64,000 bases of DNA, taken from IMG/VR virus record IMGVR_UViG_3300005805_000076, positions 7,929 through 71,928 of that record. One strand, 5' to 3'. The notes under the pieces were generated by a model. That model was given only the letters and a program-made list of their open reading frames with translations, had not been told where the DNA came from and did no database searches. The stretch comes from a virus (Duplodnaviria > Caudoviricetes). Positions 30,734-47,753 of the stretch are shown in pieces (position 1 is the first letter of the stretch; each line of letters begins with the position of its first letter). The translations under genes were made by a program, and so were the position numbers.

Positions 30734-31594
30734 ACAGACTCTGTTTATTTTACTGCTTGGCCTTTGATAAAACAGGATGTTGAATCAGGCAAAATGGAGT
30801 GGAACAAGGATGTTGCGGTGCAGGTCTATGATGACATAGCTGAACAAGTTAACAATAGTTTTCCAGCATTTATGGAAAAAGCTTGTCATTGCCCAAGACA
30901 AAACGGTGCCATTATCCGTGGTGGTCGAGAATTGGTAGCTAGCAAAGGTATCTTTATTACTAAAAAACGCTATGCTGTTCTAATCTATGACAAAGAAGGT
31001 AAACGTCTAGATACTAAAGGCAGCAAAGGTAAAATGAAGGCCATGGGGTTGGATTTGAAACGTAGTGATACCCCAAAAGTAGTACAGGACTTTTTGTCTG
31101 AGATTCTGCATGATGTTTTGACTGGTGTTGCTAAAGAAGAAATCATTGACAAAGTTCGTGAATTTAAAATTGCATTCCAAAAACGTCCAGCATGGGAAAA
31201 AGGTACTCCCAAACGTGTAAATAATCTCACACGCTATAGTGATGAAGAAAAACGTTTGGGTAAGGCCAATATGCCTGGGCATGTTCGTGCAGCTATGAAC
31301 TGGAATAATCTTAAACGTATGCATAGCGACAATTACAGTATGTCAATTGTTGATGGTATGAAAACCATTGTATGCAAACTAAAAGATAATCCCCTAGGAT
31401 ATAGTAGTGTGGGCTATCCAGTTGATGAAAGTCATATCCCGCAGTGGTTTAAGGAACTGCCATTTGATGACGACAAAATGGAAACAACCATTGTTGATCA
31501 AAAGGTAGAAAACCTTTTAGGTGTATTGGAATGGCGTATAGCTGAAAGCACTGATATTAAAACTACATTTGACTCGCTGTTTAGCTTTGATTAA
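30608..31594 (+). CDS. split intein C-part fused to the PolB C-terminal half (GTG start)
   Basis: VYDISI..FFANDILVHN then TDSVYF; KKRYA; MGLDLKRSD. Confidence 0.93.
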   Translation: MDTIRTKVKSIKCLGEVNDYVYDISIDKQDPFFFANDILVHNTDSVYFTAWPLIKQDVESGKMEWNKDVAVQVYDDIAEQVNNSFPAFMEKACHCPRQNGAIIRGGRELVASKGIFITKKRYAVLIYDKEGKRLDTKGSKGKMKAMGLDLKRSDTPKVVQDFLSEILHDVLTGVAKEEIIDKVREFKIAFQKRPAWEKGTPKRVNNLTRYSDEEKRLGKANMPGHVRAAMNWNNLKRMHSDNYSMSIVDGMKTIVCKLKDNPLGYSSVGYPVDESHIPQWFKELPFDDDKMETTIVDQKVENLLGVLEWRIAESTDIKTTFDSLFSFD

Positions 31595-31657
31595 TTTTAC
31601 CGCAAGTCTTGCATTTTCTAAATAAACATTATAATATTAACTATTACTGGAGATTTT

Positions 31658-32386
31658 ATGAAAGATTATCTATTAGATATTGTTACCCATACTCAAAGTT
31701 TAGGTATGGATTTGGTCAAAATTACTGGCAACGATAAAGAAACTTTATTGGATGCTATCGCTGAAGACCGCAGCGTGATTGTACAAGCAAAGTTTACAGG
31801 TATTGTGCCTGAATTTATTGGTACGTTTGGCATGCCAAATTTGGGCAAGCTCAACACTATTCTTAATATTCCAGAATATCAAGAAGATGCAGATATCACT
31901 ATCATTAAGCAGGATCGCAATGGTGAATCAGTGCCTGTAGGCATACACTTTGAAAACAAAAGCGGTGACTTTAAAAATGACTATCGCTTTATGAGTTCTG
32001 AAATTGTTAATGACAAACTTAAAACAGTTAAGTTCAAAGGTGTAAAGTGGAACATTGATATTGTTCCTTCTGTGGCCAGTATCCAAAAACTTAAATTTCA
32101 ACAAAGCGCAAACAGTGAAGAAACTAAGTTTGTAGCTAAAACTGAAAATGGCGACCTTAAGTTTTACTTTGGCGATCACAGCAGCCACGCAGGTAACTTT
32201 GTGTTCGAAAGCAAGGTCAGTGGAAAACTTAGCAAAGCTTGGGCATGGCCCGTTGATGCAGTTATTAGTATTCTTGGTCTTGTTGGTGATAAAACACTGA
32301 AGATTTCAGATGAAGGTGCTGCAATGATAACCGTAGACAGTGGAATTGCACAGTATAACTATATCCTGCCAGCACAAACAAAATAA
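31658..32386 (+). CDS. probable sliding clamp (gp45/PCNA-like)
   Basis: 242 aa, beta-rich two-domain pattern, follows polB, YNYILPA C-terminus; clamp loader in the same window. Confidence 0.55.
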   Translation: MKDYLLDIVTHTQSLGMDLVKITGNDKETLLDAIAEDRSVIVQAKFTGIVPEFIGTFGMPNLGKLNTILNIPEYQEDADITIIKQDRNGESVPVGIHFENKSGDFKNDYRFMSSEIVNDKLKTVKFKGVKWNIDIVPSVASIQKLKFQQSANSEETKFVAKTENGDLKFYFGDHSSHAGNFVFESKVSGKLSKAWAWPVDAVISILGLVGDKTLKISDEGAAMITVDSGIAQYNYILPAQTK

Positions 32387-33969
32387 TGGAAAAAACAAAA
32401 ACCATAGATAATCTAACTGCAAAACAGAAAGATTATGCCATATTTTTGCCGGCATTAAGCAGTTTCTACTCCACAGTTATATCTAAACAACAATTAGATC
32501 CAAACTATGTTGCTCCAACACGCATACCTCAAGGTTTTGAAAATGGCGTTGAAGGTATGAACTGGTTTAATGCCAAACAAGGGTATTTTACTTATAAATG
32601 GAGTTTGTATTCCGCAGGACATGCAGAGATTGATGTAAACAAGGGTCCGGGCCGCGATGAAATGATGCGAGCTAGAGATAGAAAGAATACCTTTGTGTTG
32701 GGCGATAGCGGCGGATTCCAAATTGGTAAAGGTGTTTGGGAAGGACAATGGACTAACCCTAACTGCCCCAAAGCAGCTAAAAAACGTAAACAAGTTTTAA
32801 CTTGGATGGATACCTATATGGATCGAGGTATGATCCTAGATATTCCAGGATGGACACATAGAATTCCTTCTGGTAGAAAAAATACAGGTATTACTTGTTA
32901 TGAAGATGCTGTAAAAGCCACAGAAATTAACAACGACTACTTTATGAAACATAGGAATGGCAATTGTAAATTCCTCAATGTTTTGCAGGGCGAAAATCAT
33001 ACAGAAGCTGATGGCTGGTATGACCGTATGAAGAAATACTGCGACCCAAAACAATACAGTCAACCATTTAATGGTTGGGGTATGGGTGGACAAAACATGT
33101 GCGATGTTCATCTATTATTGCGTAGATTGGTAGCTCTACGTTTTGATGGATTATTAGAACCTGGGTTACATGATTGGATGCATTTCCTCGGTACCAGCAA
33201 GTTAGAGTGGGCTATGTTGTTGACTGATGTACAACGTGCTGTACGTAAATATCACAACGAAAACTTTACTATTAGCTTTGACTGTGCAAGTCCGTTCTTA
33301 GCCACAGCCAATGGACAGATATATTATGATGTCAGTATAGTTGATAGAGATCGTTGGAGTTATTGTATGCGCGGCAGTGTAGACGATAAAAAATATGCCA
33401 AAGACACACGTAGTTTCCGTGATGCGGTGTTACAGGACAATGTATTTGACAAGTTCATTGAAAGTCCTATCAGTGAGAGGTTACAGATCAAAGATATTTG
33501 TACCTATGCACCAGGTGACCTAAATAAAATTGGCAAAGAAGGTAGAACTAGTTGGGATAGTTTCAGCTATACTTTGCAGATGTCACATAACGTTTGGACA
33601 CATATCTATGCAGTACAGGAAGCAAATAGACAATATGATGGTGGTATTATGCCTAACATGTTGGATACTATTACAGCAGATAAGAAAAAACCTAGATTCT
33701 ATGACCAACGTTATTTCCGTGACATTGTTAATGAAATCTTTGCTACCAGTGACAGAGGCAAAGCTGAAGCATTGATTGAACACTATAACGAGTATTGGAA
33801 AAACATTCCTGGTACTAGAGGTGCAATAGGTAAGAAAACCGTCAATAGTGGTACTATGTTTAATGCATTGTTTGAACAGGTTGATACAGATGATGTTAAA
33901 ACCACTGACGAAAACGATTTGGATGAATCTAAATTGGAGGAGTTAGAAACAGATGAATTACAAGGATAG
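32386..33969 (+). CDS. TGT/DpdA-like guanine transglycosylase
   Basis: LGDSGGFQ, MILD, NVLQG, HFLG, SFDCAS motifs; next to fol/que genes. Confidence 0.75.
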   Translation: MEKTKTIDNLTAKQKDYAIFLPALSSFYSTVISKQQLDPNYVAPTRIPQGFENGVEGMNWFNAKQGYFTYKWSLYSAGHAEIDVNKGPGRDEMMRARDRKNTFVLGDSGGFQIGKGVWEGQWTNPNCPKAAKKRKQVLTWMDTYMDRGMILDIPGWTHRIPSGRKNTGITCYEDAVKATEINNDYFMKHRNGNCKFLNVLQGENHTEADGWYDRMKKYCDPKQYSQPFNGWGMGGQNMCDVHLLLRRLVALRFDGLLEPGLHDWMHFLGTSKLEWAMLLTDVQRAVRKYHNENFTISFDCASPFLATANGQIYYDVSIVDRDRWSYCMRGSVDDKKYAKDTRSFRDAVLQDNVFDKFIESPISERLQIKDICTYAPGDLNKIGKEGRTSWDSFSYTLQMSHNVWTHIYAVQEANRQYDGGIMPNMLDTITADKKKPRFYDQRYFRDIVNEIFATSDRGKAEALIEHYNEYWKNIPGTRGAIGKKTVNSGTMFNALFEQVDTDDVKTTDENDLDESKLEELETDELQG

Positions 33970-34165
33970 AATTGCTCATTTAACAGAGATGCATAAGGTT
34001 TTAAATAAAAGAATTGACACAGCAGAACAATCAGCGAATCCAGACCATCTTAATCTGCATGAAATGAAGAAAAAACGTCTAGCGTTAAAGGACGAGATTT
34101 CTAGACTCAGCAGATTGCAATGGGAAGAAGATCACGAACGTGTGAATATTGATGACGATAGATGA
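33953..34165 (+). CDS. YdcH/DUF465-like coiled-coil protein
   Basis: HKVLNKRI...MKKKRLALKDEI. Confidence 0.6.
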   Translation: MNYKDRIAHLTEMHKVLNKRIDTAEQSANPDHLNLHEMKKKRLALKDEISRLSRLQWEEDHERVNIDDDR

Positions 34166-35031
34166 AAAGTTTAGTAATTGGTTTAGGCATAGGTAGTTTA
34201 TATAAATCAGTATTAGAGTCTTTTGGTGCTCAGGTTTTTACCGTAGACTCTAATCCTCAGAGATCTGCTGACTTTCTAGATGTTGATCAGGCTATTGCTG
34301 CACATCAATATTTTGATACTGCACATATCTGTACTCCAAACTTTACACATGCTGAACTAGCTAATAAAGTAGCATCACATGCTAGACTTGTTTTTGTTGA
34401 AAAGCCAGGTGTAAAAAATTCCAAAGAGTGGCGCAGTATTCTTAAACTGCATCCTAACACACGATTCATGATGGTTAAAAATAACCAATGGCGAGACAAC
34501 ATAGATGAACTGGCTGATCTAGCAAATTCATCCAAAAACATCAAACTATGTTGGATCAATAAAAACCGCATACCTTATCCTGGCAGTTGGTTTACTAATA
34601 AAGAGTTAGCGTTTGGTGGTGTATCTAGAGATTTATTGCCACATTTACTGAGTTACTTTATAGCTTTTGAACCTAACTATGAACAAGCGGTTTGGCTAAA
34701 GAGTCATTGTTGGCAGCAGTGGCGGTTACAGGATCTTACACATAGTGATTATGGTATTGTGGATCACAAAGGTGTCTATAATGTAGATGATAGAGTAGAA
34801 TTATCCTGTAATATAGAACATCGACATTACGAAATCATAGCTGATTGGCGTAGTAATAACGAAGATGATATTGCTATATATTTTGATGATAAAAGAATTC
34901 AATTGGATCTATGTCCAGAATCAGCCTATGCTAGGATGATTGAAACAGCAGTTCGTAATCTAAACAATGATGCTTTCTGGCTAAATCAAACTAGACAAGA
35001 TATGTGGATTCATACTAAAATAAAGCTATGA
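34162..35031 (+). CDS. Gfo/Idh/MocA-family oxidoreductase
   Basis: VIGLGIG, ICTPNFTH, VFVEKP, GGVSRDLLPH. Confidence 0.85.
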   Translation: MKSLVIGLGIGSLYKSVLESFGAQVFTVDSNPQRSADFLDVDQAIAAHQYFDTAHICTPNFTHAELANKVASHARLVFVEKPGVKNSKEWRSILKLHPNTRFMMVKNNQWRDNIDELADLANSSKNIKLCWINKNRIPYPGSWFTNKELAFGGVSRDLLPHLLSYFIAFEPNYEQAVWLKSHCWQQWRLQDLTHSDYGIVDHKGVYNVDDRVELSCNIEHRHYEIIADWRSNNEDDIAIYFDDKRIQLDLCPESAYARMIETAVRNLNNDAFWLNQTRQDMWIHTKIKL

Positions 35032-35924
35032 AAGTAAATGTATTGCAGACCTTTGGCAAGGGTGAATTTGTAGAGACAGTCTACGACAAACCAGACCCTG
35101 CTCAAGATGAAATTGAAGTTCAAGCGGTAATGACTGGGGTATGTCGCAGCGACATAGATATGATGTTGGGCGACTTTCAAACTCTACCCATACACATGCA
35201 AGGGCATGAAGGATTGGGTATAGTTACCAAAGTTGGCAACAATATTCAAGATGTAAAACTAGGTGACTATGTTGCTACACGTGGTGAACCAGCTTATGCA
35301 GATTTTTACAATGCTAAGATGTTTTCTTATGTAAAAGTACCTGAACTGCATCAACGTTACATTATTGAACCAGTAGCTTGTGGTGTAAACATTGTAATGG
35401 CTTGTATTAGAGAAATAGCAGAACGCAGTGGTAGAAACAAAAGATTGTTGATTGTGGGCAGTGGCTTTCTAGCTTATGTAGCTTATAAGACTCTTAAGTT
35501 AAATCATTTAGATTTTGATATTGATGTTTTGGGCAGTCACAATTTAGATATTTGGGGCGATAAGTTATTGTTTGGAACCTCAGATGTTTATGATGTAGTG
35601 ATTGATCTCAGCAGTGGTGAGGTTTATGATAACATTAGCGATAATGCTTTGTTAATTTTAGCTGCTGGTAAGGATAAAAATGTAGGGTTGGATATCAATT
35701 CATTGTTATGGAAATCCGCCAATATCATGTTGCCCAGTCCTAGGAATCTTAATTTCCATATGTGTATGCGTGATGCTGCACGATGGATAGAAAATGGTGA
35801 CATTGTTGTTGACAAGTTCTGGAGTAAGGGTTATAATAGATATACAGAATGGCAGCAAGCATTTGCTGATGGCGTAAACCGGCCTGCCAATTATAGCCGG
35901 GGTTATTTGTATTGGCAGCATTGA
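35028..35924 (+). CDS. zinc-dependent medium-chain dehydrogenase
   Basis: GVCRSD, GHEGLG, IVGSG. Confidence 0.85.
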   Translation: MKVNVLQTFGKGEFVETVYDKPDPAQDEIEVQAVMTGVCRSDIDMMLGDFQTLPIHMQGHEGLGIVTKVGNNIQDVKLGDYVATRGEPAYADFYNAKMFSYVKVPELHQRYIIEPVACGVNIVMACIREIAERSGRNKRLLIVGSGFLAYVAYKTLKLNHLDFDIDVLGSHNLDIWGDKLLFGTSDVYDVVIDLSSGEVYDNISDNALLILAAGKDKNVGLDINSLLWKSANIMLPSPRNLNFHMCMRDAARWIENGDIVVDKFWSKGYNRYTEWQQAFADGVNRPANYSRGYLYWQH

Positions 35925-36463
35925 TGTCTTTAGACACTGAAGCACGTAAACAAGTAGATTATTTTATTGGCACAGAAGTAGAACATACAGCAATGAAGGG
36001 TGAGAAAACTCTTTTCGTTGTAGGTATAAAGCCGCTTGATGAAATCGTAGCCACAGCAAGACGTTATAAAATAAATCACATCTATTTTGGCACCAGTCAA
36101 AGTTTTACCCCAAATTCAGTTGATGAATGGCAACAATGGGACCACATGATTAGACCCTTGTTGTCCTTGGGTTATTGGGTTACATTGGACTTTGACATTA
36201 AACATATCGAGTTCATTCATGAATCCTGTTGGAACGAGTACAATACCTTTATTCCAATGATCAGTGCTAAAATTCCAGCTATTAAATTACTAAATTATAA
36301 CGCAGTATTAAAAATTGATGATGTCACTTGGGGTAAAACTAATCCAGGGGTATGGTGTCACAGTGTTCATGAATTAATGAATAAATCTGCCTTTACTGGT
36401 TGGAAAGACTATGTGGGTGACAAAACAGTCAAACCAGTTAAAGTGCCAAAAAATAAATCTTAA
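35924..36463 (+). CDS. hypothetical protein of the deazaguanine cluster
   Basis: ATG overlaps the upstream TGA; YFIGTEVEHT, HIYFG. Confidence 0.7.
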   Translation: MSLDTEARKQVDYFIGTEVEHTAMKGEKTLFVVGIKPLDEIVATARRYKINHIYFGTSQSFTPNSVDEWQQWDHMIRPLLSLGYWVTLDFDIKHIEFIHESCWNEYNTFIPMISAKIPAIKLLNYNAVLKIDDVTWGKTNPGVWCHSVHELMNKSAFTGWKDYVGDKTVKPVKVPKNKS

Positions 36464-36477
36464 TTATTGGGAATAAT

Positions 36478-36909
36478 ATGGAAGACCATTCACCACAACG
36501 AGAACTAGCACTATACGAAAATCGGCAACGTATCAAACGTGATGCTGATAGGAAGATCTGGGTTACATTTCGTAAAGAAGGTATCCACTGTTATCCAGCT
36601 GCGGCCACTGCACCTGCATTACAGGATGTAAGTTTTTTGGGTTATCCGCATAGACATATCTTCCATTTCAAAGTTTGGATTGATGTTCTGCATAATGACC
36701 GTGACATAGAATTTATCCAATTCAAACGTTGGTGTGAATCTCTATATACTAGTCAAACTTTGGATCTAAATAACAAAAGCTGTGAAATGATTGCAGACGA
36801 TTTGTTTGATCAAATCGCTCAAAAGTATCCTGACCGTAGGGTCTGGATTGAGGTCTCCGAAGACGGTGAGAACGGAGCTCTTATTAAATATGAACTCTCA
36901 CCTAAATAA
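36478..36909 (+). CDS. QueD-like T-fold protein
   Basis: EGIHCYP, HRHIFH (HxH), SCEMIA, IEVSEDGENG. Confidence 0.65.
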   Translation: MEDHSPQRELALYENRQRIKRDADRKIWVTFRKEGIHCYPAAATAPALQDVSFLGYPHRHIFHFKVWIDVLHNDRDIEFIQFKRWCESLYTSQTLDLNNKSCEMIADDLFDQIAQKYPDRRVWIEVSEDGENGALIKYELSPK

Positions 36910-36932
36910 ACAAAGTAACAAGAGGAAATAAA

Positions 36933-37124
36933 ATGTCTCAACCTGTTTGGCTTAAAAAATATCTCCGTATGAAACCAGAAGTTACCAAGATCTATGATGA
37001 TCTTGAAGAATGGTTGAATCACTGTCGTTGGGAGATGATTAAGTTTGATCCTAAGGATCTATATAGGAGCAAAGAATATAAAGAGTTTGTGAAAGCCAAA
37101 AAGACAGTAGCTAAAAATGGCTAA
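36933..37124 (+). CDS. hypothetical protein
   Basis: 63-aa ORF with GAGG RBS. Confidence 0.65.
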   Translation: MSQPVWLKKYLRMKPEVTKIYDDLEEWLNHCRWEMIKFDPKDLYRSKEYKEFVKAKKTVAKNG

Positions 37125-37152
37125 TGTATTTGTCATTATTTTTGAAAATCTG

Positions 37153-38100
37153 TTAATTTGACTGTAACTTTTTATAGTCTTTGACTTTACAAATTTTTTT
37201 AAATTCCCAAAAGCCTCTTAAATGAGGCTTTTTTGGATCTAATGATGACCCAATTTCTTGTTTTTTACAAAAATCTAATCTATTTCCCATAAGTATAAAG
37301 GTTTCACCAGAAGGAGAAATTGCTTCCCAAACGTAAGCATTATAATTTTGATCACCATAAGAATTTCTTTTAGGACGAGATCGATTTGATTGTGCTGATT
37401 TAATTTTTCCTGCTGTTAGTCCTTCTTTTCTAATCTCTTCTAACCATTTTTTGCCAAAATTATTAATGAGTAAATGTCTTATGGTGTATTGAGCGTGTCC
37501 AGTTTTTTCAGAGGTGGTCTTGATAGTTTTATATTTTTCAAATTCAGATTTAATCGTATTTAAATACTCTAAGTAATTATTATATCCATATTTTCGTGCT
37601 ATTGCCTCTAAATGTTTTTCTTTAACTTCTGGTTGATTCATAGGATTATTAAGTTTAGAATATATTTTATTGAATTCTCTCATAGAGTTTAACCCCTTTT
37701 CTGAATGATATTGACCAAATTTTTCTTGTCTATATTTTTTATGATTGGCTATTCTTTCTCCAACCCTATGACACACATTATTTGAACAATTTAAAAATCG
37801 TTCTTCAAAAACCATATTCATACGACGAATAACTTTGCTTTCATGTGCTATAGCAGCTTCTTGAGCATTATGGATAGACCCGTATATTTTAGGATCAAAT
37901 ATTTTTCTAATTTCTATTAATTTTGGATCGCCGTATTTTTTTCTATATGTTTTAACCAATTCTGATGAAGTAAAATATGTTTTCCAAAAAGTGCTAGGAT
38001 TTGAATCATACCCAAATTTTACTCCATAATAAAATTTGTTTGATTCAGGCCACCCTATAAAATAACAATAGGGTATAGTTTTAAGGTTGTTATGACTCAT
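37153..38100 (-). mobile_element. free-standing GIY-YIG-like homing endonuclease, antisense to the operon
   Basis: PYCYFIGW..KFYYGVKF..YFTSS..E..E motifs; same N-terminal family as 7909..8655. Confidence 0.75.
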
Positions 38101-38131
38101 ATGATTATTTATTCATTTTCAGTGAAAATTA

Positions 38132-38160
38132 TTGATTTTATAAAAATAATGCTGTATAAT
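38132..38160 (+). promoter_or_regulatory. sigma70-type promoter for the glycosyltransferase
   Basis: TTGATT-17 nt-TATAAT. Confidence 0.55.
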
Positions 38161-38181
38161 CTTTTTTAATTAGGAAATAAA

Positions 38182-39258
38182 ATGATGAAACCCACAATTT
38201 GGATTTTTAGTATTGAACCTTTAGAAAATCGCTATACTAAGCAATGGCACGAGCATTTTCCTGCTTTACTTAAAAAAAGGGTAGGTAGTCAATTTAACAT
38301 CGTTCAAATTGACGGAATACAAAAAAATACCAAAACTACTCCTGGAGCTTTTTTAAATTTTTCTGATACGAACTATTGGAAAAGTTCTCAGTTATGTAAA
38401 TTTTTAGACTGCCACAATAACGGCGAAACCTCAGCTAATGATCATTTTATTTTCACTGACGCTTGGAATCCCACAGTAATTCAATTGCGGTACATATCTG
38501 ATTTATTGGGTTTTAATTGGAAATTACATGGTCTTTTTCATGCAGGAAGTTGGGATCCTCAGGATTTCCTAGGTAGATTAATTGGATCAGCACCTTGGGT
38601 TAGACATGCTGAAAAGAGTTTCTTTCACGCAATCGATTATAACTACTTTGCCACAGACTTTCATATCAAATTGTTTTGTAAAAATTTGTTAGGTATTGGT
38701 GCAACTGATCATTGGGAAGGTAGTAACATTATACGCACAGGCTGGCCCATGGAATATATGGAGCAGACTCTTGCTCCATACAAAGGTATGAAGAAACGTG
38801 ACCTAATCCTGTTTCCACACAGACTGGCTCCAGAAAAACAACTAGATATCTTTAAGGATCTACAACAGCAATTACCACAATACGAGTTTGTGGTATGCCA
38901 GGAACAACAGTTAACCAAAGATGAGTATCATAATCTTTTGGGAGCAGCTAAGATTGTGTTCAGTGCTAATCTACAGGAAACACTGGGTATTAGCTGTTAT
39001 GAAGGTGCATTAGTGGATGCAGTCCCGATGGTTCCAGATAGACTTAGTTATAGTGAAATGTATTATGACACATTCAAATATCCCAGTGAATGGACTGAAG
39101 ATTGGTCAAGCTATATGAACTATAGGCAGCATTTGTGCTATCATATTTCCACAGTTATGACTCATTATGAAACACGATTACCACAACTGCAAAAGCAGGC
39201 ATCGGATCTAACCAAATACTTTTTTAGTGCAGATGTATTGTTACAGCAAATTAATTAG
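38182..39258 (+). CDS. GT-B (GT4-like) glycosyltransferase
   Basis: FPHRLAPEKQ, ANLQETLGIS..EGA, PDRLSY.E. Confidence 0.75.
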   Translation: MMKPTIWIFSIEPLENRYTKQWHEHFPALLKKRVGSQFNIVQIDGIQKNTKTTPGAFLNFSDTNYWKSSQLCKFLDCHNNGETSANDHFIFTDAWNPTVIQLRYISDLLGFNWKLHGLFHAGSWDPQDFLGRLIGSAPWVRHAEKSFFHAIDYNYFATDFHIKLFCKNLLGIGATDHWEGSNIIRTGWPMEYMEQTLAPYKGMKKRDLILFPHRLAPEKQLDIFKDLQQQLPQYEFVVCQEQQLTKDEYHNLLGAAKIVFSANLQETLGISCYEGALVDAVPMVPDRLSYSEMYYDTFKYPSEWTEDWSSYMNYRQHLCYHISTVMTHYETRLPQLQKQASDLTKYFFSADVLLQQIN

Positions 39259-39278
39259 TCCATTTGACTGGAAATTAA

Positions 39279-39307
39279 TTGACTAATGTGTCCGGCCTAA
39301 ATATAAT
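39279..39307 (+). promoter_or_regulatory. composite sigma70 / late-type promoter
   Basis: TTGACT-17 nt-TATAAT overlapping TAAATA (39298-39303). Confidence 0.65.
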
Positions 39308-39403
39308 ATGAAGATGCAAAGAAAATTTATTCCTACAGCAATCTACAATCATAAGATGCCTTTTGTATCTTCATCGTCAAATAACAAGGATCAGAATATA
39401 ATT

Positions 39404-40084
39404 ATGCACAAACCAATCAGTGAACAAATTAGAGAAAGAATTTTAGCAGCAGGGGTAAAATTCCACAGTAATGATAACATTGCTGATTTTATCAAAGAAG
39501 GTGAAATTGATGCTTTGGTTGACGAAGTAGCCGAGCAATTTCAAGGTGTATTAAACAGTTTAGTTATTGACACTGACAATGATCATAACACACAGGAAAC
39601 TGCAAGACGTGTGGCTAAGATGTTTGTATTAGAAACATTCAATGGCAGATATCGTCCAGAGCCAAGAATCACTGCTTTCCCTAACATGGGGTATAAAAGC
39701 CTTTATACAACTGGACCTATCAGTATTCGCAGTACCTGCGCACATCACTTTCAAAATATTGTTGGACGTTGTTGGGTTGGCATTGTGCCGGAAGATGAAG
39801 TAATTGGACTCAGCAAGTTTAATCGCATTGTACATCACATCTGCGAACGTCCACAAATCCAAGAAGAAATGACCACACAGATTGCAGAAGCATTGAAAAA
39901 GTATGCTAAAACTGACAATATTGCTGTGGTAGTCAAAGCAGAACATCATTGTATGACCATGCGTGGTGTAAGGGAGCATGAAAGTGATATGACCACTGCA
40001 ATTATGTTAGGTGCTTTTGATAATCATCCTCCACTTAAACAAGAGTTTTATGATATTTGTTTAAGCATGAAGGGTCACAAATAA
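39404..40084 (+). CDS. folE: GTP cyclohydrolase I (start 39404 or 39308)
   Basis: ETARRVAK, STCAHH, GLSKFNR, RPQIQEEMT, HHCMTMRG. Confidence 0.93.
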   Translation: MHKPISEQIRERILAAGVKFHSNDNIADFIKEGEIDALVDEVAEQFQGVLNSLVIDTDNDHNTQETARRVAKMFVLETFNGRYRPEPRITAFPNMGYKSLYTTGPISIRSTCAHHFQNIVGRCWVGIVPEDEVIGLSKFNRIVHHICERPQIQEEMTTQIAEALKKYAKTDNIAVVVKAEHHCMTMRGVREHESDMTTAIMLGAFDNHPPLKQEFYDICLSMKGHK

Positions 40085-40408
40085 ATGAGAGGTCGGTTGA
40101 ACCCAACGTTGACTGGTTCAACCGCTGTGGACATTTATGACTATGATTGTGATGTTCACAATTATCTTATTAAAAAAGGTGCTATACCTTACGAAGAAAG
40201 ATTACCAGTTAGTAGTTTGAATGAAGTATTTACAAACCTAGCTTTTCAAAACACTAAGCCTGTAAAGTTTTATAGTCTCAGAGAAAGTCCTTCCGCTAGG
40301 ATTTTCTTCCCAAGCAATGACGATGCTTTGGTGTTCAGTATAGCGTTTGGGCACAAAATTTTTAATACAACCTGTAAAGAAATAAGAAAAATGTTGGAGG
40401 AACAATGA
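40085..40408 (+). CDS. hypothetical protein
   Basis: 107-aa ORF in operon. Confidence 0.6.
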   Translation: MRGRLNPTLTGSTAVDIYDYDCDVHNYLIKKGAIPYEERLPVSSLNEVFTNLAFQNTKPVKFYSLRESPSARIFFPSNDDALVFSIAFGHKIFNTTCKEIRKMLEEQ

Positions 40409-40959
40409 GTAAAAGATATGTTGATTGGAAAGAGTTTACTGGTCTAGTTAATGAAATCTGCAGACAAATAGCCAACGACAAATGGCGTCCAGATTATGTA
40501 GTAGGTATTACTAGAGGTGGACTCTTACCTGCTACCATGATCAGTCATTATTTTGATGTACCATGTCAAACCCTTAAAATAAGTTTGCGATATCATAATA
40601 GTTATGATTGCGAAAGTAATCTTTGGATGGCGGAGGATGCTTTTGGTAGTGTACCACCTGAGGAACAGACTACTAGTCGATGGGACCCTGCTTACAGAAA
40701 AAACATTCTCATTGTAGATGATATTAACGATAGTGGTGCAACTATGAACTATCTTATTGATGATTGGAGCAGCGGATGTTATCCTAACGAAACTCAAATT
40801 TGGAATTCTGTTTGGGGTAAGAATGTTAGATTCGCTGTTCTTTTTGATAATTTGGGTAGTAAAAGTAAACTATCAATGAACTATGTTAGTGAAGAACTAG
40901 ATCCAGAAAATAAACCTTGGATAGTTTTTCCTTATGAGAATTGGTGGCAAAATGGCTAA
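40405..40959 (+). CDS. type I phosphoribosyltransferase (Gpt-like)
   Basis: VGITRGGL, ILIVDDINDSGAT, WIVFPYE. Confidence 0.88.
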   Translation: MSKRYVDWKEFTGLVNEICRQIANDKWRPDYVVGITRGGLLPATMISHYFDVPCQTLKISLRYHNSYDCESNLWMAEDAFGSVPPEEQTTSRWDPAYRKNILIVDDINDSGATMNYLIDDWSSGCYPNETQIWNSVWGKNVRFAVLFDNLGSKSKLSMNYVSEELDPENKPWIVFPYENWWQNG

Positions 40960-41332
40960 AGATATCAAACAAGCAAAAGCTAGTGGTTGTTTTCCTTGGC
41001 CAATAGAACAGGAATTCAAACATTATGTTCTTTGTGAGGACAAGTATGCAGTTACACAAGGGCACACTCTTTTTATGCCAAAAATTAACAACACAGAATA
41101 TCTTGTAATAACCTTTCAAGCAGCATTACAGTACGGCAATTGGTTAGTACTTAACGGTACCTGCGATGCGTTTAACATTGGTATGAACTGCGGTGAGGCG
41201 GCAGGTCAAACTGTGATGTATCCACACATTCACGTCATTCCCCGTAGATTTGGAGATTGTGAAGATCCAATCGGTGGTGTGCATGGTGTTATAGCTGGCA
41301 AAGCAAACTATAAGAAATCTAGTTATAAATAG
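40952..41332 (+). CDS. HIT-family hydrolase
   Basis: GHTLFMPK, FNIGMN.G.AAGQTVMYPHIHVIPR. Confidence 0.85.
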   Translation: MAKDIKQAKASGCFPWPIEQEFKHYVLCEDKYAVTQGHTLFMPKINNTEYLVITFQAALQYGNWLVLNGTCDAFNIGMNCGEAAGQTVMYPHIHVIPRRFGDCEDPIGGVHGVIAGKANYKKSSYK

Positions 41333-41336
41333 TAAT

Positions 41337-41377
41337 ATCGGTCTTGGCGTCATCCCGATTAAAAAATTCTGCCGCCA
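41337..41377 (+). ncRNA. candidate cis-regulatory H-type pseudoknot (preQ1-I-like topology)
   Basis: ATCGG/CCGAT stem; loop TGGCG pairs with CGCCA; A6 linker; TATAAATA 5 nt upstream. Confidence 0.45.
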
Positions 41378-41400
41378 TTGCTAACTTTTAGGAGATAACA

Positions 41401-41739
41401 ATGGCAAATATTATTCTAAACAACAACGACATAGGTGGTGAAGTCATTAAAGACAACGAAACCTATCGTTTAATAGACAACAAAACACTTAATAATCTTA
41501 TTCTAAGCCAAACTCAGCTACATGCTGGGCAAAGCACACGAGGTCATAGTCACGCAGGACAAGAGGAGGTTTATTTCTTTGTGTCAGGCTCTGGTGAGAT
41601 GGAGGTTGACAATCAGCGATTTGAAGTGTATTCTGGTAAGATTGTGTTAATACCTGATGGTGCATTCCATCGTGTTCATAACACTGGCACAATTGATTTG
41701 ATCTTCAATTGTGTGTTTGACGGAAAAAGGAATCACTAA
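41401..41739 (+). CDS. cupin domain protein
   Basis: GHSH..QEEVYF..SGSG, IP.G..H.V.NTG. Confidence 0.85.
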   Translation: MANIILNNNDIGGEVIKDNETYRLIDNKTLNNLILSQTQLHAGQSTRGHSHAGQEEVYFFVSGSGEMEVDNQRFEVYSGKIVLIPDGAFHRVHNTGTIDLIFNCVFDGKRNH

Positions 41740-41740
41740 A

Positions 41741-41977
41741 ATGGCAAAAACAAACAATAAATTTACAATACAAGTCTATCTAGACAATGGCGTGATATTT
41801 GAATACACCGTAAATAGCGCAGCTAAAGCTAGAGAGCACAGTCATGCAATAATACAGACTGGTTATCGACATGTGGAAGCTGGAGTACTTGAACATTACC
41901 CACCACATAGAATATCCAAAGTAAAAGTACTGGGAGATATTGATTCTGTCTATCCTGACCAAACAAGGGGTACATGA
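41741..41977 (+). CDS. hypothetical protein
   Basis: 78-aa ORF from ATG 41741. Confidence 0.6.
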   Translation: MAKTNNKFTIQVYLDNGVIFEYTVNSAAKAREHSHAIIQTGYRHVEAGVLEHYPPHRISKVKVLGDIDSVYPDQTRGT

Positions 41978-41978
41978 T

Positions 41979-42494
41979 ATGACACTTCAATCAGTAGCAT
42001 ACAAATTTACATCAACCAAAGAGTATGTAGATGAGTTTCCCTGTGCTTATAAACAGTGGAAAGCCGACACACATTGCAACCTCAATCATGGTTACAGCTT
42101 CTCAATCAAATTCTATTTTGGTGCCAATCAATTAGACAAACGTGGTTGGGTGATTGATTATGGTGGGTTACGTGAACTAAAAGAAATTCTAAAAGCGCAG
42201 TTTGATCACAAAACTATTATTGCTAGGGACGATCCGGATCTTGAGAAATACCTTCAGCTGGAACGTGATGGCATACTTGAGTTAACTGTATTACCAGGTA
42301 TGGGCTGTGAACGTTTAGCTGACATGTTATATAAGTATGTCAACGGAGTTTTTATTCCTGATTATTTTGGCAAAGGTGAAGCTGAACGTGTTTGGTGTTA
42401 TCGTGTTGAAGTTCGTGAAACGCAGAGTAACATGGCGTTTCGTGAAGGCCATAGAGAATGGATGGAAGATCTATTTGATGAAGAATCTAAGTGA
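41979..42494 (+). CDS. queD: 6-carboxytetrahydropterin synthase
   Basis: HCNLNHGYS, IDYGGL, FDHK, GCERLA, VEVRET. Confidence 0.82.
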   Translation: MTLQSVAYKFTSTKEYVDEFPCAYKQWKADTHCNLNHGYSFSIKFYFGANQLDKRGWVIDYGGLRELKEILKAQFDHKTIIARDDPDLEKYLQLERDGILELTVLPGMGCERLADMLYKYVNGVFIPDYFGKGEAERVWCYRVEVRETQSNMAFREGHREWMEDLFDEESK

Positions 42495-42781
42495 ATACTG
42501 AGAAAATCAAAGAAATATTAGTAATTACACAGGAAGAAGCTGCTGAAGTTATTCAAGTAATATCAAAGATGCAGCGATTTGGTATTGGTGCTGTTTATCT
42601 CCGCGAGGGCGAAAACACCACCAATATCGATGCCTTACACAAAGAAGTAGGTGATTTACTTTGTATGATAGATCTGTTACAATCACATGGGTTGTTAAAC
42701 AAGGACATATTAGATGTGGCCAAAGCAGCAAAGACTGAAAAGTTAAAGCGTTGGTCCACTATATTTGATAAGGATGATTAA
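42491..42781 (+). CDS. MazG-like pyrophosphohydrolase
   Basis: QEEAAEV..EVGDL. Confidence 0.75.
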   Translation: MNTEKIKEILVITQEEAAEVIQVISKMQRFGIGAVYLREGENTTNIDALHKEVGDLLCMIDLLQSHGLLNKDILDVAKAAKTEKLKRWSTIFDKDD

Positions 42782-42782
42782 T

Positions 42783-43064
42783 ATGAATTGGTTTTTTCGA
42801 TGGTTAGAAAAACGCTGTAGATATGCTAGAGATGACGAGAAAGTGCAACTTTCTTCAGAACCAGTAGGGCGCCGTAGGTTTAATGACAACGGTATGCATT
42901 TTACATTATACAAGGCTACAGGCGGTTATGTTATTGAATACACAAAGTATGACAACAAGACTGATAGGAATTATACTGATCTACATGTTGTGCCAGATTT
43001 AGAAGATTTAGGGGAAGCAATTGGCAGCACCATTACATTGGAAGCATTAAGGAATCTTCGATGA
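42783..43064 (+). CDS. hypothetical protein
   Basis: ORF in operon; its stop overlaps ATG 43061. Confidence 0.65.
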   Translation: MNWFFRWLEKRCRYARDDEKVQLSSEPVGRRRFNDNGMHFTLYKATGGYVIEYTKYDNKTDRNYTDLHVVPDLEDLGEAIGSTITLEALRNLR

Positions 43065-43084
43065 GTAAGATTAAAGTATCCTAA
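43061..43084 (+). pseudogene. orphaned original 5' end of queE (MSKIKVS*)
   Basis: ATGA-coupled mini-ORF resembling the queE start at 44470 (MNSKLKVSE). Confidence 0.6.
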
Positions 43085-43085
43085 C

Positions 43086-43131
43086 TTTTTCCTTCACCTT
43101 GTATAAATAAATATACAGGAAGAAGGAAAAA
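43086..43131 (+). promoter_or_regulatory. RBS-sequestering hairpin containing late promoter TATAAATA
   Basis: TTTTCCTTC (43087-95) pairs GAAGGAAAA (43122-30); inner TGTATA/TATACA; TATAAATA at 43102-09. Confidence 0.75.
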
Positions 43132-44444
43132 TGCTTAACAAACACTACAAAAATCGATATGACAAATTTATAGAAAAAATAAAATCGTTAGGACAAAGAA
43201 CTTTCACCGGATATACTGAAGTGCATCACATACAGCCAAAATGTCTCAAAGGAACAGATAGCAAAAAAAATTTAATAAGACTAACACTACGAGAACATTT
43301 TCTGGCTCATTGGTTATTGTGGAAGTCATATCCAAATTATTTGCCCATTGCCAGTGCGTTTCTACAGATGAACCATAAAAATTCAAAGGGTAATAAAGGA
43401 TTCCAAGGTAGAATTACCAGCAGGACCTACGAAACACTACGATCACAAACGTACAAGATGATAAGTGAAGTTAATCGAGACAAGGTAAACGTTAGAGACG
43501 AAAACGACAATTTATTACGTATATCCAAAGAAGAATATAAGAATAGCGATTATAAATTTCACACTGCTGGAAAGATATACGTGTTTAACACAGAAACTAA
43601 TGAATGGGTATATATTTCCGCTGAGGAATATCACCAAAATAAATCAAAATATATCACTCGGCTGCACAATTCTTACAGTGGGTACGGTAACGGCACGTCT
43701 AATCCGTTAACGTGTTCCTATAATTTTATAGACACCGACACACAAAATATAGTTAAGCTAAAAAAAGCCGACGCTAGAGCGATTAATGAATCCACCGGCT
43801 ATAAAAGATTTAAACAAGTAGTTAATCATCAAATAGCATGCATAGACCAATCCGGTCGACGGGTGTTAGTGTCGCGCGAGGAATATCAAAACATTCACCA
43901 CACGCTATCACATGTGAATCAAAATAAATTGACCGTTTTCGATACTGAGACGAAAGGAACTATGCAGATTACGATCGAAGAGTATCAATCTAACCCCAAC
44001 AGGTATCTAACATCTACAAAAGGAAAGATATTAGCGAAAGACGATACAGGAAAAACGGTTTTGGTAACCAAAGAGGAGTTTAAATTGAGGGGGCTCGTCG
44101 GGCAAACTAAAGGACTAAGGACCTGCTTAGATCAAGAGACCGGACAATATGTACAAATTACGCAGGACGAATACATAAAAAACAAAACCAGATTCGTAGG
44201 ACCAAACAAAGGCAAAGTAAATGCCATTAACAAATTAACCGGTGAACGAACACAAATACCACGAGATCAATTTGACAAAAATATCTATGCAGGGTTAGGT
44301 AACAAATCGCTGCTTTTTCTCTGCCGGAACAAGTTGACAAACAAAGAAAAAAACATTAATATATACGAATGGCGTTTAATAAAAGACCAATACGAAATTA
44401 TTGATACTGACAAGTATGAAAAAATTAAAAATTTAATCAAATAG
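43131..44444 (+). mobile_element. free-standing HNH homing endonuclease with C-terminal repeats
   Basis: EVHHIQPKC..NLIRLTLREHFLAHWLL; repeated ISxEEY units. Confidence 0.82.
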
Positions 44445-44469
44445 ACAATTTATTAAAAGGAACCAATCT

Positions 44470-45320
44470 ATGAATTCTAAACTTAAAGTTTCGGAAATTT
44501 TTTTTTTTTTTCCATCCAGGGCGAAGGACGATATATGGGAGTCCCCAGTATCTTCCTAAGAACTTTTGGCTGTAATTTTAAATGTCGAGGCTTTGGTAGA
44601 GACTATGTACCTACAGATGAGACTCATAATCCTGAAGTAGTTGAAGTAATCAAGCAGATTGACAAATACAAAAATTATAGAGATCTGCCATTGGTTGAAA
44701 CTGGCTGTGACAGTTATGCAGCAGTTTACCCAGAGTTTAAGAAACTGTCACCCACCATGGATGTGAAGGAACTGGCAGAAAAAATTGTTAGCTTGCTGCC
44801 CAACAAACGCTGGCAGGATGAACATCTCGTTATCACTGGTGGCGAACCCTTGTTGGGTTGGCAACGTGCATACCCAGATCTGTTAGAACAACCTGTAATG
44901 CGAAAGCTAAAAGAAATTACTTTTGAGACCAACGGCACTCAACCTTTGAGCAAAGAATTTGTTGATTATTTGCATGCATGGGGAAATGTTACCTTCAGCG
45001 TCAGTGCCAAACTCAGCTGCTCGGGAGAATCACGTGCTGAAGCAATACAGCCGCAGATTATATGCAGCTATGAAGATGTTGGATACACATATCTAAAATT
45101 TGTTGTGGCCACTGAGCAGGATGTGGAAGAAGCCATCGAAACGGTGGATGTTTATCGTGCAGAAGGATTCCTAGGTCCGGTATATTTGATGCCGGTGGGC
45201 GGAGTTGAAAGTGTTTACAAGCTCAACAATCGCAAGGTAGCAGAACTGGCTATGAAATATGGATTACGTTACAGTGATAGATTGCAAGTTCCGCTCTGGA
45301 AGAACGCTTGGGGTACATAA
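44470..45320 (+). CDS. queE: 7-carboxy-7-deazaguanine synthase (radical SAM), frame broken by a T14 run
   Basis: KVSEIF..SIQGEGRYMGVPSVFLRTFGC-type N-terminus after a frame shift; ITGGEP, FETNG, SVSAKL, YSDRLQVPLW. Confidence 0.85.
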
Positions 45321-45586
45321 TGGTTGCCGGTGGCTTTGGTAGCATATTCCCAACTAAAGAGGAATTGGAAAAGGCAGAACAAATATGGAACTGGCGCTGG
45401 CAACAGTACAGCACCTGGGAGAAATCCTTTGCTCTGCTACCACACCGATGTCACTTATCTAAAAAATGGATTTGGATGCAAATGGGATATCGAGGTACTC
45501 TATTAAGTCCTGACATAGGCAACCGCCTCACTCTTTCACGTTGGCATCATTATGATGAACATATTATTTGGGAATTAAAAAGGTAG
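45308..45586 (+). CDS. hypothetical Trp-rich protein
   Basis: 92-aa ORF. Confidence 0.5.
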   Translation: MGYIMVAGGFGSIFPTKEELEKAEQIWNWRWQQYSTWEKSFALLPHRCHLSKKWIWMQMGYRGTLLSPDIGNRLTLSRWHHYDEHIIWELKR

Positions 45587-45590
45587 AAAT

Positions 45591-45824
45591 ATGGAGCGAA
45601 TTGCAATACCAGAACAAATAACGGTATATGCGTTAGTTAAGCAGACTGGCATGATGTTGTCTTATACAGGTATGTCAAATCCTAATATTGGTTTCGGATT
45701 TTTTCTATCTCAACTTGACGCAGAATATGCTAGAACCGTTGAGATACTTAAAGATCAAACATCGATATTTCATATATTTCCACTTACTATACCCAATCCA
45801 GCATTTTTAGTTTCAGGTAAGTAA
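45591..45824 (+). CDS. hypothetical protein
   Basis: 77-aa ORF with AAGG RBS. Confidence 0.55.
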   Translation: MERIAIPEQITVYALVKQTGMMLSYTGMSNPNIGFGFFLSQLDAEYARTVEILKDQTSIFHIFPLTIPNPAFLVSGK

Positions 45825-45842
45825 CTATCCTAAGGAGTAATT

Positions 45843-46202: not shown

Positions 46203-46212
46203 TCAAATATAT

Positions 46213-46241
46213 TTGACAATAAAGGCATAATCTGCTACTAT
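46213..46241 (+). promoter_or_regulatory. sigma70-type promoter
   Basis: TTGACA-17 nt-TACTAT with TGn extension. Confidence 0.65.
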
Positions 46242-46270
46242 AATATGTCTGTCTTTTATATTGGAATATC

Positions 46271-47278: not shown

Positions 47279-47299
47279 CATGAAAGTAACCTATCGCCT

Positions 47300-47752: not shown

Positions 47753-47753
47753 T

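Follow-up and report, generated by a model that had tools for sequence, protein, structure and literature searches.

The closest published route to a 7-deazaguanine-containing phage genome is that of Cellulophaga phage phiST, in which 2'-deoxy-7-deazaguanosine (dDG) fully replaces G (Cui, Hutinet et al., NAR 2023, PMC10516641). This phage encodes FolE, QueD (with a CxxxHGY motif), QueE, DpdL, a MazG-like protein and a TGT-fold enzyme, the 259-aa DpdA3, and neither QueC nor QueF. DpdL, defined by the motif LxxxHRHxF, is the proposed decarboxylase of 7-carboxy-7-deazaguanine (CDG) in this QueC-free pathway and the sole candidate for its missing step (PMC10516641). Related gene sets occur in the Acidovorax phage ACP17, a T4-like 156-kb phage, and in the Pseudomonas jumbo phage PA5oct (Wroclawvirus). 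In ACP17, gp119-gp126 include a conserved protein here called u183 (gp122), a TGT-fold DpdA of 424 aa (gp123), a glycosyltransferase (GT, gp124), DpdL (gp125), QueE, FolE and QueD beside the polymerase. The order of PA5oct gp162-gp168 is polB, clamp-like gene, TGT-fold gene, GT, DpdL, a phosphoribosyltransferase (PRT), QueE and exonuclease, with u183 and QueD elsewhere in the genome. A phage GT-B enzyme is also coupled to a non-canonical base pathway in the T-even phages, presumably for defence evasion, although their alpha- and beta-glucosyltransferases act on the hydroxyl of hmC, a pyrimidine, in DNA.

We analyzed a corresponding module in an uncultured jumbo phage, known from a 71.9-kb record that is ~21% complete; the window, i.e., the whole stretch of DNA analyzed, comprises 64,000 nt. 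An earlier note, made from the sequence alone, had described here a 7-deazaguanine cluster of 13 genes with a DpdA-like transglycosylase, and all 13 were located on the + strand at the expected positions, the list having missed a DUF465 gene, a 63-aa ORF and two homing endonucleases (Table 1). The module lies within the replication gene block, right behind the DNA polymerase, and the synteny analysis proposed in that note found its gene order repeated in 92 related viral contigs (80 + 12), an arrangement far beyond chance. The gene upstream, which had been called a clamp, is in place and syntenic in 79 loci, but it has no Pfam match, and its only tie to clamps is Phosso gene 221, annotated by the depositors as a sliding clamp, with which it shares 32% identity (E 5e-38). 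The DUF465 gene was found in 14 loci. Compared with phiST, the window shares FolE, QueD, QueE, DpdL, a MazG-like protein and a TGT-fold enzyme, the last of 527 aa, whereas phiST is without the GT, u183, PRT and dehydrogenases. ACP17 differs in the absence of the Gfo/ADH pair, PRT, HIT and cupin, and PA5oct in the absence of the Gfo/ADH pair.

Table 1. Features of the module and its surroundings (positions in the window; last column, occurrence among the 27 related loci with enough sequence for co-occurrence counts).
Feature	Positions	Strand	Basis and remarks	Loci of 27
Clamp-like protein	31658..32386	+	phrog_12062, function-unknown family; context only, outside pathway	
TGT-fold, DpdA-like protein, 527 aa	32386..33969	+	Very divergent; structure and motifs	
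DUF465 small protein	33953..34165	+	PF04325, E 4.6e-13; variable	
Short Gfo/Idh/MocA oxidoreductase (Gfo)	34162..35031	+	PF01408, 31 bits; predicted accessory tailoring enzyme	13
Short Zn-dependent MDR dehydrogenase (Zn-ADH)	35028..35924	+	PF08240, 40.7 bits; accessory	13
u183	35912..36463	+	Conserved, fold unassigned; core module member	26
DpdL, QueD paralogue	36478..36909	+	Motif and homology; proposed CDG decarboxylase	27
63-aa ORF	36933..37124	+	Conserved, in dpdL-GT interval	24
NUMOD3-type homing endonuclease	37153..38100	-	tblastn; inserted in module	
GT4-type GT (GT-B, retaining-type)	38182..39258	+	AF2 model and EX7E motif	27
FolE, GTP cyclohydrolase I	39308..40084	+	PF01227, E 1.3e-45	27
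Purine-type PRT	40405..40959	+	PF00156, E 8e-16	21
HIT-family protein	40934..41332	+	PF01230, 35.3 bits; variable	5
Small cupin	41401..41739	+	PF07883, E 7e-13; rare	1
PTPS/QueD, CPH4 synthase type	41940..42494	+	PF01242, 61 bits	
Small MazG-like protein	42491..42781	+	Weak: PF03819, 20.6 bits, below cut-off of 22	
HNH homing endonuclease	43131..44444	+	phrog_655, E 8e-34; just 5' of queE	
QueE-like radical SAM, CDG synthase	44470..45320	+	PF04055, 34.7 bits; intact ORF part 44535-45320	

The gene previously noted as a second T-fold is real and was identified as DpdL by its invariant motif FLGYPHRHIF and by its identity to DpdL of ACP17 (gp125, 58%), PA5oct (54%) and phiST (CGPG_00067, 35%, E 5e-9); the catalytic Cys of QueD/PTPS is missing. 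QueD shares 47% identity with ACP17 QueD, and its CxxxHGY motif is common to other phage QueDs. The QueE-like protein matches five NCBIfam QueE models, all below their cut-offs. Its gene is present as had been claimed, but in the source record a T14 run (44498-44511) interrupts the frame, with the N-terminus MNSKLKVSEI and SIQGEG in different frames, whereas queE is intact in relatives. Together with the TGT fold described below, DpdL and the FolE, QueD and QueE matches bear out a 7-deazaguanine cluster. Neither QueC nor QueF is encoded in the window, as had been observed, or in the rest of the 71.9-kb record. QueC is likewise absent from the five longest relatives, all fragments no more than 45% complete, and from the complete genomes of PA5oct, ACP17, Phosso and phiST, and QueF from those of PA5oct, ACP17 and Phosso. 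Since DpdL belongs to a published route to dDG (PMC10516641), the absence of QueC is already accounted for and is insufficient, alone, as a sign of novelty.

The 527-aa protein has no match in Pfam, PHROG or NCBIfam, and the CxCxxC...H zinc site of TGT was not found in it. The top Foldseek matches of its AF2 model (pLDDT 89) are nevertheless all TGT (E 2.5e-6), with a VIA Z of 17.7 over 307 residues to T. maritima TGT, and D107 in GDSGGFQ, H266 and D299 in SFD are invariant. It belongs to a family of >8000 members, shares 34% identity with the PA5oct TGT-fold protein, and was related by hhalign to ACP17 gp123 (94.6%) and weakly to phiST DpdA3 (60% probability, E 9e-5). Given its modeled fold, we propose that it may exchange guanine for 7-deazaguanine in DNA.

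The GT that had been recognized in the module does have a GT4 fold. Its AF2 model (pLDDT 87.7) aligns over ~300 residues with sucrose-phosphate synthase (SPS, VIA Z 24.9), MshA (23.4), BshA (23.1) and BGluT (20.6), and the EX7E motif (E266...E274) is invariant, although sequence identity in these structural alignments is 8-12% and a match to PF00534 is absent. The PDB matches listed for the model include no T-even glucosyltransferase. Beyond its constant presence in the related loci, GT and DpdL are encoded no more than 4 kb apart in ACP17, PA5oct, Phosso, BUDD, X1, BCSR5 and BUCT-ZZ01, i.e., in at least seven cultured phage lineages; the GTs adjoining DpdL in ACP17, PA5oct and Phosso share 36-49% identity with it (36% and TM 0.87 for ACP17, 43% for PA5oct). 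By contrast, six other DpdL-bearing phage lineages had no GT match at E <1e-3; therefore, GT is not required for DpdL-type modification generally. Here it is a core module member outside every described deazaguanine pathway. The other conserved partner, u183, belongs to an orphan family of >7500 members with no match in Pfam, PHROG, NCBIfam, PADLOC or PDB, and its homologue in ACP17 lies directly 5' of dpdA. The 63-aa ORF has no family match.

Gfo, of a phage-specific subfamily of ~1900 proteins, has 3e18, inositol 2-dehydrogenase and the C-glycoside 3-oxidase DgpA as its best PDB matches (E 1e-4 to 1e-3), and Zn-ADH matches PDB alcohol dehydrogenases (E 3e-11). Gfo and ADH are always paired, and where present the pair lies between dpdA and dpdL. 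In one lineage, represented by two independent assemblies (L093 and L094), ADH and DpdL form an in-frame fusion ORF, with no GT found within 8 kb; this fusion suggests that Zn-ADH is functionally tied to DpdL. The dehydrogenase pair thus keeps the place in the module that it had been given, and it is not covered by any described pathway. PRT matches the purine PRT 1vdm (E 1e-7). HIT and cupin, also listed in the earlier note as members, seldom co-occur with the module, and the ORF assigned to MazG is in place, although its assignment is weak. The NUMOD3-type endonuclease, whose tblastn matches are NUMOD3 motif proteins from phages of Dickeya and Salmonella, is in none of the related loci and is a selfish element outside the pathway; the HNH endonuclease is likewise missing at the same place in relatives. 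The window also encodes an unrelated-looking pair of NDP-sugar dehydratase and aminotransferase, so there is phage sugar chemistry elsewhere too.

Overall, we lean, at somewhat better than even confidence, towards a module that replaces guanine with 7-deazaguanine in phage DNA without QueC, the final base being a glycosylated derivative and not plain dDG. By established family functions, FolE would convert GTP to dihydroneopterin triphosphate, QueD would then form CPH4 and QueE CDG. As proposed in the literature, DpdL would decarboxylate CDG to 7-deazaguanine and a TGT-fold DpdA, here the divergent 527-aa form, would swap this base into DNA after replication. The GT4 enzyme and u183, which in this lineage are obligate companions of DpdL and DpdA, may place a sugar on the deazapurine or a precursor. 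The acceptor would most likely be a small molecule in free form, since the closest folds belong to GT4 enzymes whose acceptors are small. Gfo and Zn-ADH might tailor the pathway in roughly every second lineage; a sugar or polyol could, as first suggested from the sequence, be built and attached to the base by the dehydrogenases and GT. The purine PRT would salvage guanine freed by base exchange. Against this reading stand the missing zinc site, the weak relation to DpdA3, the queE frameshift, the DpdL lineages without GT, the fusion lineage with no GT nearby, and the absence from plain 7-deazaguanine of a hydroxyl that could be O-glycosylated.

This lack of an obvious acceptor group would be no difficulty if the phage made plain dDG, which we consider rather unlikely. 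GT, u183 and the dehydrogenases would then serve another target (a different base, a glycan of the virion or host, or some metabolite), linked to the module merely by shared early/middle expression near the replication genes. phiST indeed makes dDG with FolE, QueD, QueE, DpdL and DpdA3 and no GT, and the NDP-sugar dehydratase and aminotransferase are consistent with sugar chemistry elsewhere. However, GT and DpdL are neighbours in seven or more widely differing lineages whose gene orders are otherwise reshuffled, GT is present in all 27 close relatives, and the ADH-DpdL fusion also argues for a functional link. Moreover, E. coli with ACP17 DpdA and DpdL alone made no dDG, and the authors suggested that further enzymes were needed (PMC10516641).

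A pre-replicative route, in which PRT makes a deazapurine nucleotide, MazG and HIT adjust pools and the polymerase incorporates the analogue, leaving the TGT-like protein a secondary or repair role, appears improbable. In tubercidin and toyocamycin biosynthesis, a phosphoribosyltransferase does turn a free deazapurine into a nucleotide. A purine-type PRT is present in most related loci, PA5oct and the cyanophage BUCT-ZZ01, MazG-like and HIT genes are at hand, the module is embedded among the replication genes, and complete G replacement was reported for DpdA3 phages (PMC10516641). Yet conservation of the TGT-fold gene equals that of the polymerase gene (60-83% identity), with both catalytic aspartates kept, no kinase or dedicated reductase was recognized in the module, salvage of released guanine explains PRT equally well, and Cui et al. 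argued that the base is inserted after replication in every known case (PMC10516641).

Still less probable is a pterin-glycoside branch, in which FolE, the T-fold protein, the two dehydrogenases and GT4 would make a glycosylated pterin in parallel to a QueD/QueE deazaguanine branch. Cyanobacteria make biopterin glucoside, and one member of the T-fold family is PTPS, which yields a keto product that dehydrogenases reduce. The match of the GT model to BGluT, a UDP-glucose:tetrahydrobiopterin glucosyltransferase, and the fusion of ADH to a T-fold protein in L093 fit such a branch, but BGluT is one of numerous GT4 matches, others scoring higher, DpdL is without the catalytic Cys, QueE and the TGT-fold gene always accompany DpdL and GT, and in dDG-bearing phiST the missing step has no candidate other than DpdL (PMC10516641). 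That the TGT-like enzyme acts on host or phage tRNA is very improbable: its structural neighbours are all tRNA enzymes, but in four lineages its gene has the clamp-like gene on one side and the remaining replication genes on the other, it is related to the ACP17 protein treated as DpdA by Cui et al., and PA5oct DNA is reported to resist five restriction enzymes whose recognition sites contain G (PMC12191111).

If the module does lead to a glycosylated 7-deazaguanine, the DNA of this phage may hold a sugar-bearing purine, previously undescribed.

At its core, the module studied here belongs to the known DpdL-type 7-deazaguanine system, from which it is set apart as a variant by a conserved GT4-type glycosyltransferase (GT), a conserved unnamed protein (u183), a phosphoribosyltransferase (PRT), and a dehydrogenase pair linked to DpdL. 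Immediately upstream of it are an intein-split family B polymerase (27496-31594) and a 242-aa clamp-like gene, and all genes listed in the earlier note are present in the window. The IMG/VR source record has 71.9 kb, of which the window covers 64 kb, and its CheckV completeness of about 21% indicates that it is a piece of a phage genome of roughly 300 kb or more. The window has a G+C content of about 37%, with nearly all genes on the plus strand. Megablast of the region against phage records gave no match. An Rfam search of 31000-48000 at E up to 1 returned nothing, and a preQ1-riboswitch-like pseudoknot considered at 41324-41400 thus has no backing from known families. Searches of Pfam, PHROG, NCBIfam, and PDB sequences were empty for the 527-aa transglycosylase, GT, and u183, so structure prediction was needed for these key proteins.

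Genes of the module, homing endonuclease genes of the window, and the fusion gene found in related contigs (positions are those of the window unless a contig is named)
Feature	Position	Strand	Family match
SegE-like GIY-YIG/NUMOD3 homing endonuclease	7909-8655	+	
Transglycosylase, TGT-fold, DpdA-like (527 aa)	32386-33969		
Gfo/Idh/MocA oxidoreductase (Gfo)	34162-35031	+	PF01408, 31 bits (cut-off 24), part of domain only
Zn-dependent dehydrogenase (ADH)	35028-35924	+	GroES-like PF08240, 40.7 bits (cut-off 23.5), residues 1-84 only
u183	35912-36463		
DpdL	36478-36909		PHROG phrog_17812 (function unassigned)
NUMOD3-type homing endonuclease, interrupts module	37153-38100	-	
GT4-type glycosyltransferase (GT)	38182-39258		
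FolE	39308-40084	+	PF01227, 155 bits, E 1.3e-45
Purine-type phosphoribosyltransferase (PRT)	40405-40959	+	PF00156, 58 bits, over cut-off
HIT	40934-41332	+	Pfam/NCBIfam
Cupin	41401-41739	+	Pfam/NCBIfam
PTPS/QueD	41940-42494	+	PF01242, 61 bits (cut-off 22.4)
MazG-like (below cut-off)	42491-42781		PF03819, 20.6 bits (cut-off 22)
HNH homing endonuclease, interrupts module	43131-44444	+	
QueE-like radical SAM	44535-45320	+	PF04055, 34.7 bits (cut-off 29.5)
HNH homing endonuclease	51817-53127	+	
ADH::DpdL fusion, ENA ERZ27263696 (281.8-kb contig)	L093:11112-12491		
ADH::DpdL fusion, Logan SRR9214418 (independent)	L094:7182-8561		

The earlier note had described one gene of the module as a second T-fold protein; the gene stands, and its motif and named homologues now identify it as DpdL, with CDG decarboxylation as its putative activity. 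DpdL is a QueD paralogue proposed to decarboxylate CDG, in which LxxxHRHxF replaces the CxxxHGH of QueD (PMC10516641). The window protein carries FLGYPHRHIF, with L54, H58, R59, H60, and F62 invariant in 25 sequences, and tblastn relates it to the DpdL of phage ACP17 (58%, E 6e-38) and to CGPG_00067 of phiST (35%, E 5e-9). The PHROG family in the table was its sole match in sequence searches, with none in Pfam, NCBIfam, or PDB sequences. As hhalign against the QueD family of the window gave a probability of only 4.5%, the relation between DpdL and QueD is settled by the published motif and by the tblastn matches to named DpdL proteins.

Neither queC nor queF had been recognized in the window, and the same now holds for the whole 71.9-kb record. 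QueC is also missing from the five longest relatives and from PA5oct, ACP17, Phosso, and phiST, whose genomes are complete, and QueF from PA5oct, ACP17, Phosso, and the close relative G001; the close relatives covered for these two genes are fragments at most 45% complete. The missing QueC is a known feature of the DpdL route and no novelty in itself, since phiST, with FolE, QueD, QueE, DpdL, and DpdA3 and without QueC, has all of its G replaced by 2'-deoxy-7-deazaguanosine (dDG) (PMC10516641). In E. coli, DpdA and DpdL of ACP17 did not yield dDG, and further enzymes may be required (PMC10516641). In the ACP17 genome, GT and u183 directly adjoin dpdA and dpdL, the two genes used by Cui et al. 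Their 2023 paper (PMC10516641) is the sole relevant one on DpdL that we found.

QueD and QueE are probable assignments, with Pfam scores over cut-off; the NCBIfam QueD model scored 35 bits, below its cut-off of 89, and the five NCBIfam QueE models that match the radical SAM gene were all below their cut-offs. The QueD of the window has the motif CNLNHGY, and CxxxHGY, not the canonical CxxxHGH, is found in all five phage QueDs (the window, ACP17, phiST, BUCT-ZZ01, and RHph_I1_18). Between the start of queE (ATG at 44470, MNSKLKVSEI) and the conserved SIQGEG segment there is a run of 14 T (44498-44511), and the two are in different frames; the gene would be restored with 12 or 15 T. In all 15 relatives examined, queE is intact, with no long T run at that place. 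The break is probably a homopolymer error, with slippage as the alternative.

The AlphaFold model of the 527-aa protein (pLDDT 89) had only tRNA-guanine transglycosylases as top Foldseek matches (E 2.5e-6), and in the VIA comparison it aligned with 2ash over 307 residues (Z 17.7, rmsd 4.4 Å). On this model, the protein carries the TIM-barrel fold of tRNA-guanine transglycosylases (TGT), and DNA base exchange is its predicted activity. The catalytic aspartates of TGT are D102, in DSGGFQ, and the nucleophile D280 (Z. mobilis numbering). In an alignment of 42 diverse members of the family, GDSGGFQ (D107), H266, and D299 in SFD are all invariant, and from these motifs, rather than from residue-level superposition, we infer that D107 and D299 are equivalent to the two catalytic aspartates. 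The same alignment lacks the CxCxxC...H zinc site of classical TGT; only C372 (31 of 42) and H401 (37 of 42) show partial conservation, and D370 and D391 are close by. Pfam had no match for the protein at E 0.01, and PF01702 had none anywhere in the record at E up to 1. The family is very large and unnamed, with more than 8000 matches and 963 clusters at 50% identity. Its cultured relatives include PA5oct gp168 (34%), gene 468 of Vibrio phage 2.275.O, and Phosso gene 440. By hhalign it matched ACP17 gp123 with 94.6% probability (E 7e-8, 181 columns), while the match to phiST DpdA3 (CGPG_00065) was weak (60%, E 8.6e-5, 82 columns). ACP17 gp123 is a TGT-fold gene directly upstream of ACP17 GT and DpdL, and because of this position we take it as the dpdA expressed by Cui et al.

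The GT model (pLDDT 87.7) shows a GT-B fold with two Rossmann domains. Its VIA matches over 303-316 residues were sucrose-phosphate synthase (6kih, Z 24.9), MshA (23.4), and BshA (23.1), with LmbT and a tetrahydrobiopterin glucosyltransferase (Z 20.6) as further matches, and in predicted structure GT is therefore closest to GT4 members with small-molecule acceptors. The EX7E motif is present as E266-TLGISCY-E274, with both glutamates invariant in 25 sequences. Pfam at E 0.01 had no match for GT, PF00534 included, and PF00534 was found only on 29% of the members of one neighbouring Atlas cluster. Among the structures of the viral library, the model was most similar to the GT of ACP17 (gp124, TM 0.87). 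No more than 4 kb separates GT from DpdL in ACP17, PA5oct, Phosso, the Xanthomonas phages BUDD and X1, Burkholderia phage BCSR5, and cyanophage BUCT-ZZ01, seven phages outside the clade in which gene order is otherwise reshuffled. As six DpdL lineages, phiST included, had no GT match, GT distinguishes one sub-type of the DpdL pathway.

Some 11 kb beyond queE lie genes for an NDP-hexose 4,6-dehydratase/epimerase-type SDR and, after it, a DegT/DnrJ/EryC1 aminotransferase (56182-58274; E 7e-80 for the latter), and the pair constitutes a nucleotide-aminosugar pathway; G001 also has a full DegT gene. As a universal donor route for GT, this pair was rejected, being absent from PA5oct, ACP17, Phosso, BUDD, and BUCT-ZZ01. 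In Xanthomonas phage PhiXhv-15 (L091:4750-7984), a distant GT homologue (26% identity) adjoins a GlmS-type aminotransferase and a BshB/LmbE-type deacetylase, an arrangement hinting at hexosamine decoration in this lineage; PhiXhv-15 also has QueD and a 568-aa TGT-like gene at other places.

Across 80 related IMG/VR loci the gene order is polB, clamp-like gene, transglycosylase, (DUF465, Gfo, ADH), u183, DpdL, and a 63-aa ORF, followed by GT, FolE, PRT, (HIT), (QueD), (MazG), QueE, and an exonuclease. We counted co-occurrence in the 27 loci that have 9.5 kb or more of sequence downstream. DpdL and FolE are present in all of them, u183 in 26, the 63-aa ORF in 24, PRT in 21, QueE in 16, and QueD, which is located elsewhere in some relatives, within range in six. 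The reading of the earlier note depended on the accessory genes accompanying dpdA in relatives; this holds for GT (27/27) but only in part for Gfo and ADH (13/27), and HIT (5/27) and cupin (1/27) were dropped as core members. Gfo and ADH occur together in all 28 cases in which the sequence allows judging, and 12 more distant loci keep the whole order, Gfo and ADH included.

Both dehydrogenases are short, phage-specific forms. The solved structures nearest to Gfo, all of them weak matches, are those of sugar or cyclitol dehydrogenases, among them the C-glycoside 3-oxidase DgpA, and the C-terminal domain PF22725 is found in some Gfo homologues; the PDB matches of ADH are alcohol dehydrogenases (E 3e-11). 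In two independent assemblies, a single 459-aa ORF joins ADH (residues 1-303, 54% identity) to DpdL (residues 323-441, 53%, motif LASRHRHLF). In this fusion lineage, the 8 kb that follow show neither u183 nor GT. The fusion was not found in IMG/VR, where the 12 loci returned have separate genes. As a sequence arrangement, the fusion argues that ADH works with DpdL. It is hard to reconcile with a simple-decarboxylase role of DpdL and would agree with a carbonyl or hydroxyl being made on the intermediate.

A profile search with u183 found more than 7500 unnamed relatives and no Pfam domain. Comparison with phiST CGPG_00066 and with the Phosso "glycosylase" showed no relationship, and the Atlas model of u183 is poor (pLDDT 0.44), which makes its TIM-barrel-like neighbours untrustworthy. 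The nearest PDB entries of PRT are purine PRT, 6-oxopurine PRT, and HGPRT (archaeal and yeast 6-oxopurine PRTs), and by this similarity PRT can be read as an enzyme for salvage of released guanine or for a nucleotide-forming step. The gene previously called MazG is present, but its family call did not survive the Pfam cut-off. PADLOC had no match for the small unnamed ORFs.

The window holds four free-standing homing endonuclease genes, besides the nuclease inside the split polymerase; relatives have none at the equivalents of the two positions within the module. Elsewhere in the window, the minus strand, opposite to most genes, carries at 60841-63956 a pair of neighbouring "twitch domain" radical SAM/SPASM proteins (NCBIfam NF033640; 287 and 304 bits, both above cut-off) and a third radical SAM ORF. 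Adjoining dihydrofolate reductase and thymidylate synthase genes (54525-55949) are ordinary for large phages. At 9407-12540, a ClpB/Hsp104-type double AAA+ protein comes after a DnaJ-like co-chaperone, and a PhoH-like ATPase is encoded at 4347-5078 on the minus strand.

To our knowledge, eight 7-deazaguanine derivatives occur in viral DNA, none of them with a sugar, and the glycosylated DNA bases of phages are pyrimidines only. We found no paper on glycosylated deazaguanine in DNA. The final base made by this module is predicted, and likely, to differ from the eight known derivatives. More tentatively, and with the chances somewhat against it, the DNA of this phage lineage and of PA5oct, ACP17, and Phosso might contain a sugar-bearing 7-deazaguanine, a putative base never described in DNA. 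DpdL and, where present, the Gfo/ADH pair would produce a hydroxyl-bearing or otherwise reactive intermediate. This free small molecule would be glycosylated by GT, and the enlarged 527-aa transglycosylase would then insert the bulky base into DNA, much as eukaryotic TGT inserts queuine into tRNA. The sugar decoration would differ between lineages with and without the dehydrogenase pair.

The proposed scheme offers an explanation for two loose ends, namely ACP17 DpdA and DpdL without a product and the suspected modified G of PA5oct. In the latter phage, the authors suspect a modified G and cite the QueE and PTPS genes, with base, transglycosylase, and GT unnamed (PMC12191111). The cultured phages PA5oct, ACP17, Phosso, BUDD, and BUCT-ZZ01 share this gene set, and the prediction is thus directly testable. 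The families concerned are very large in metagenomes, with over 8000 relatives for the transglycosylase and over 7500 for u183. If the prediction is true, DNA hypermodification would gain a new class, glycosylated deazapurines, which would matter for defences based on restriction, CRISPR, and glycosylases as well as for tools in sequencing and enzymology.
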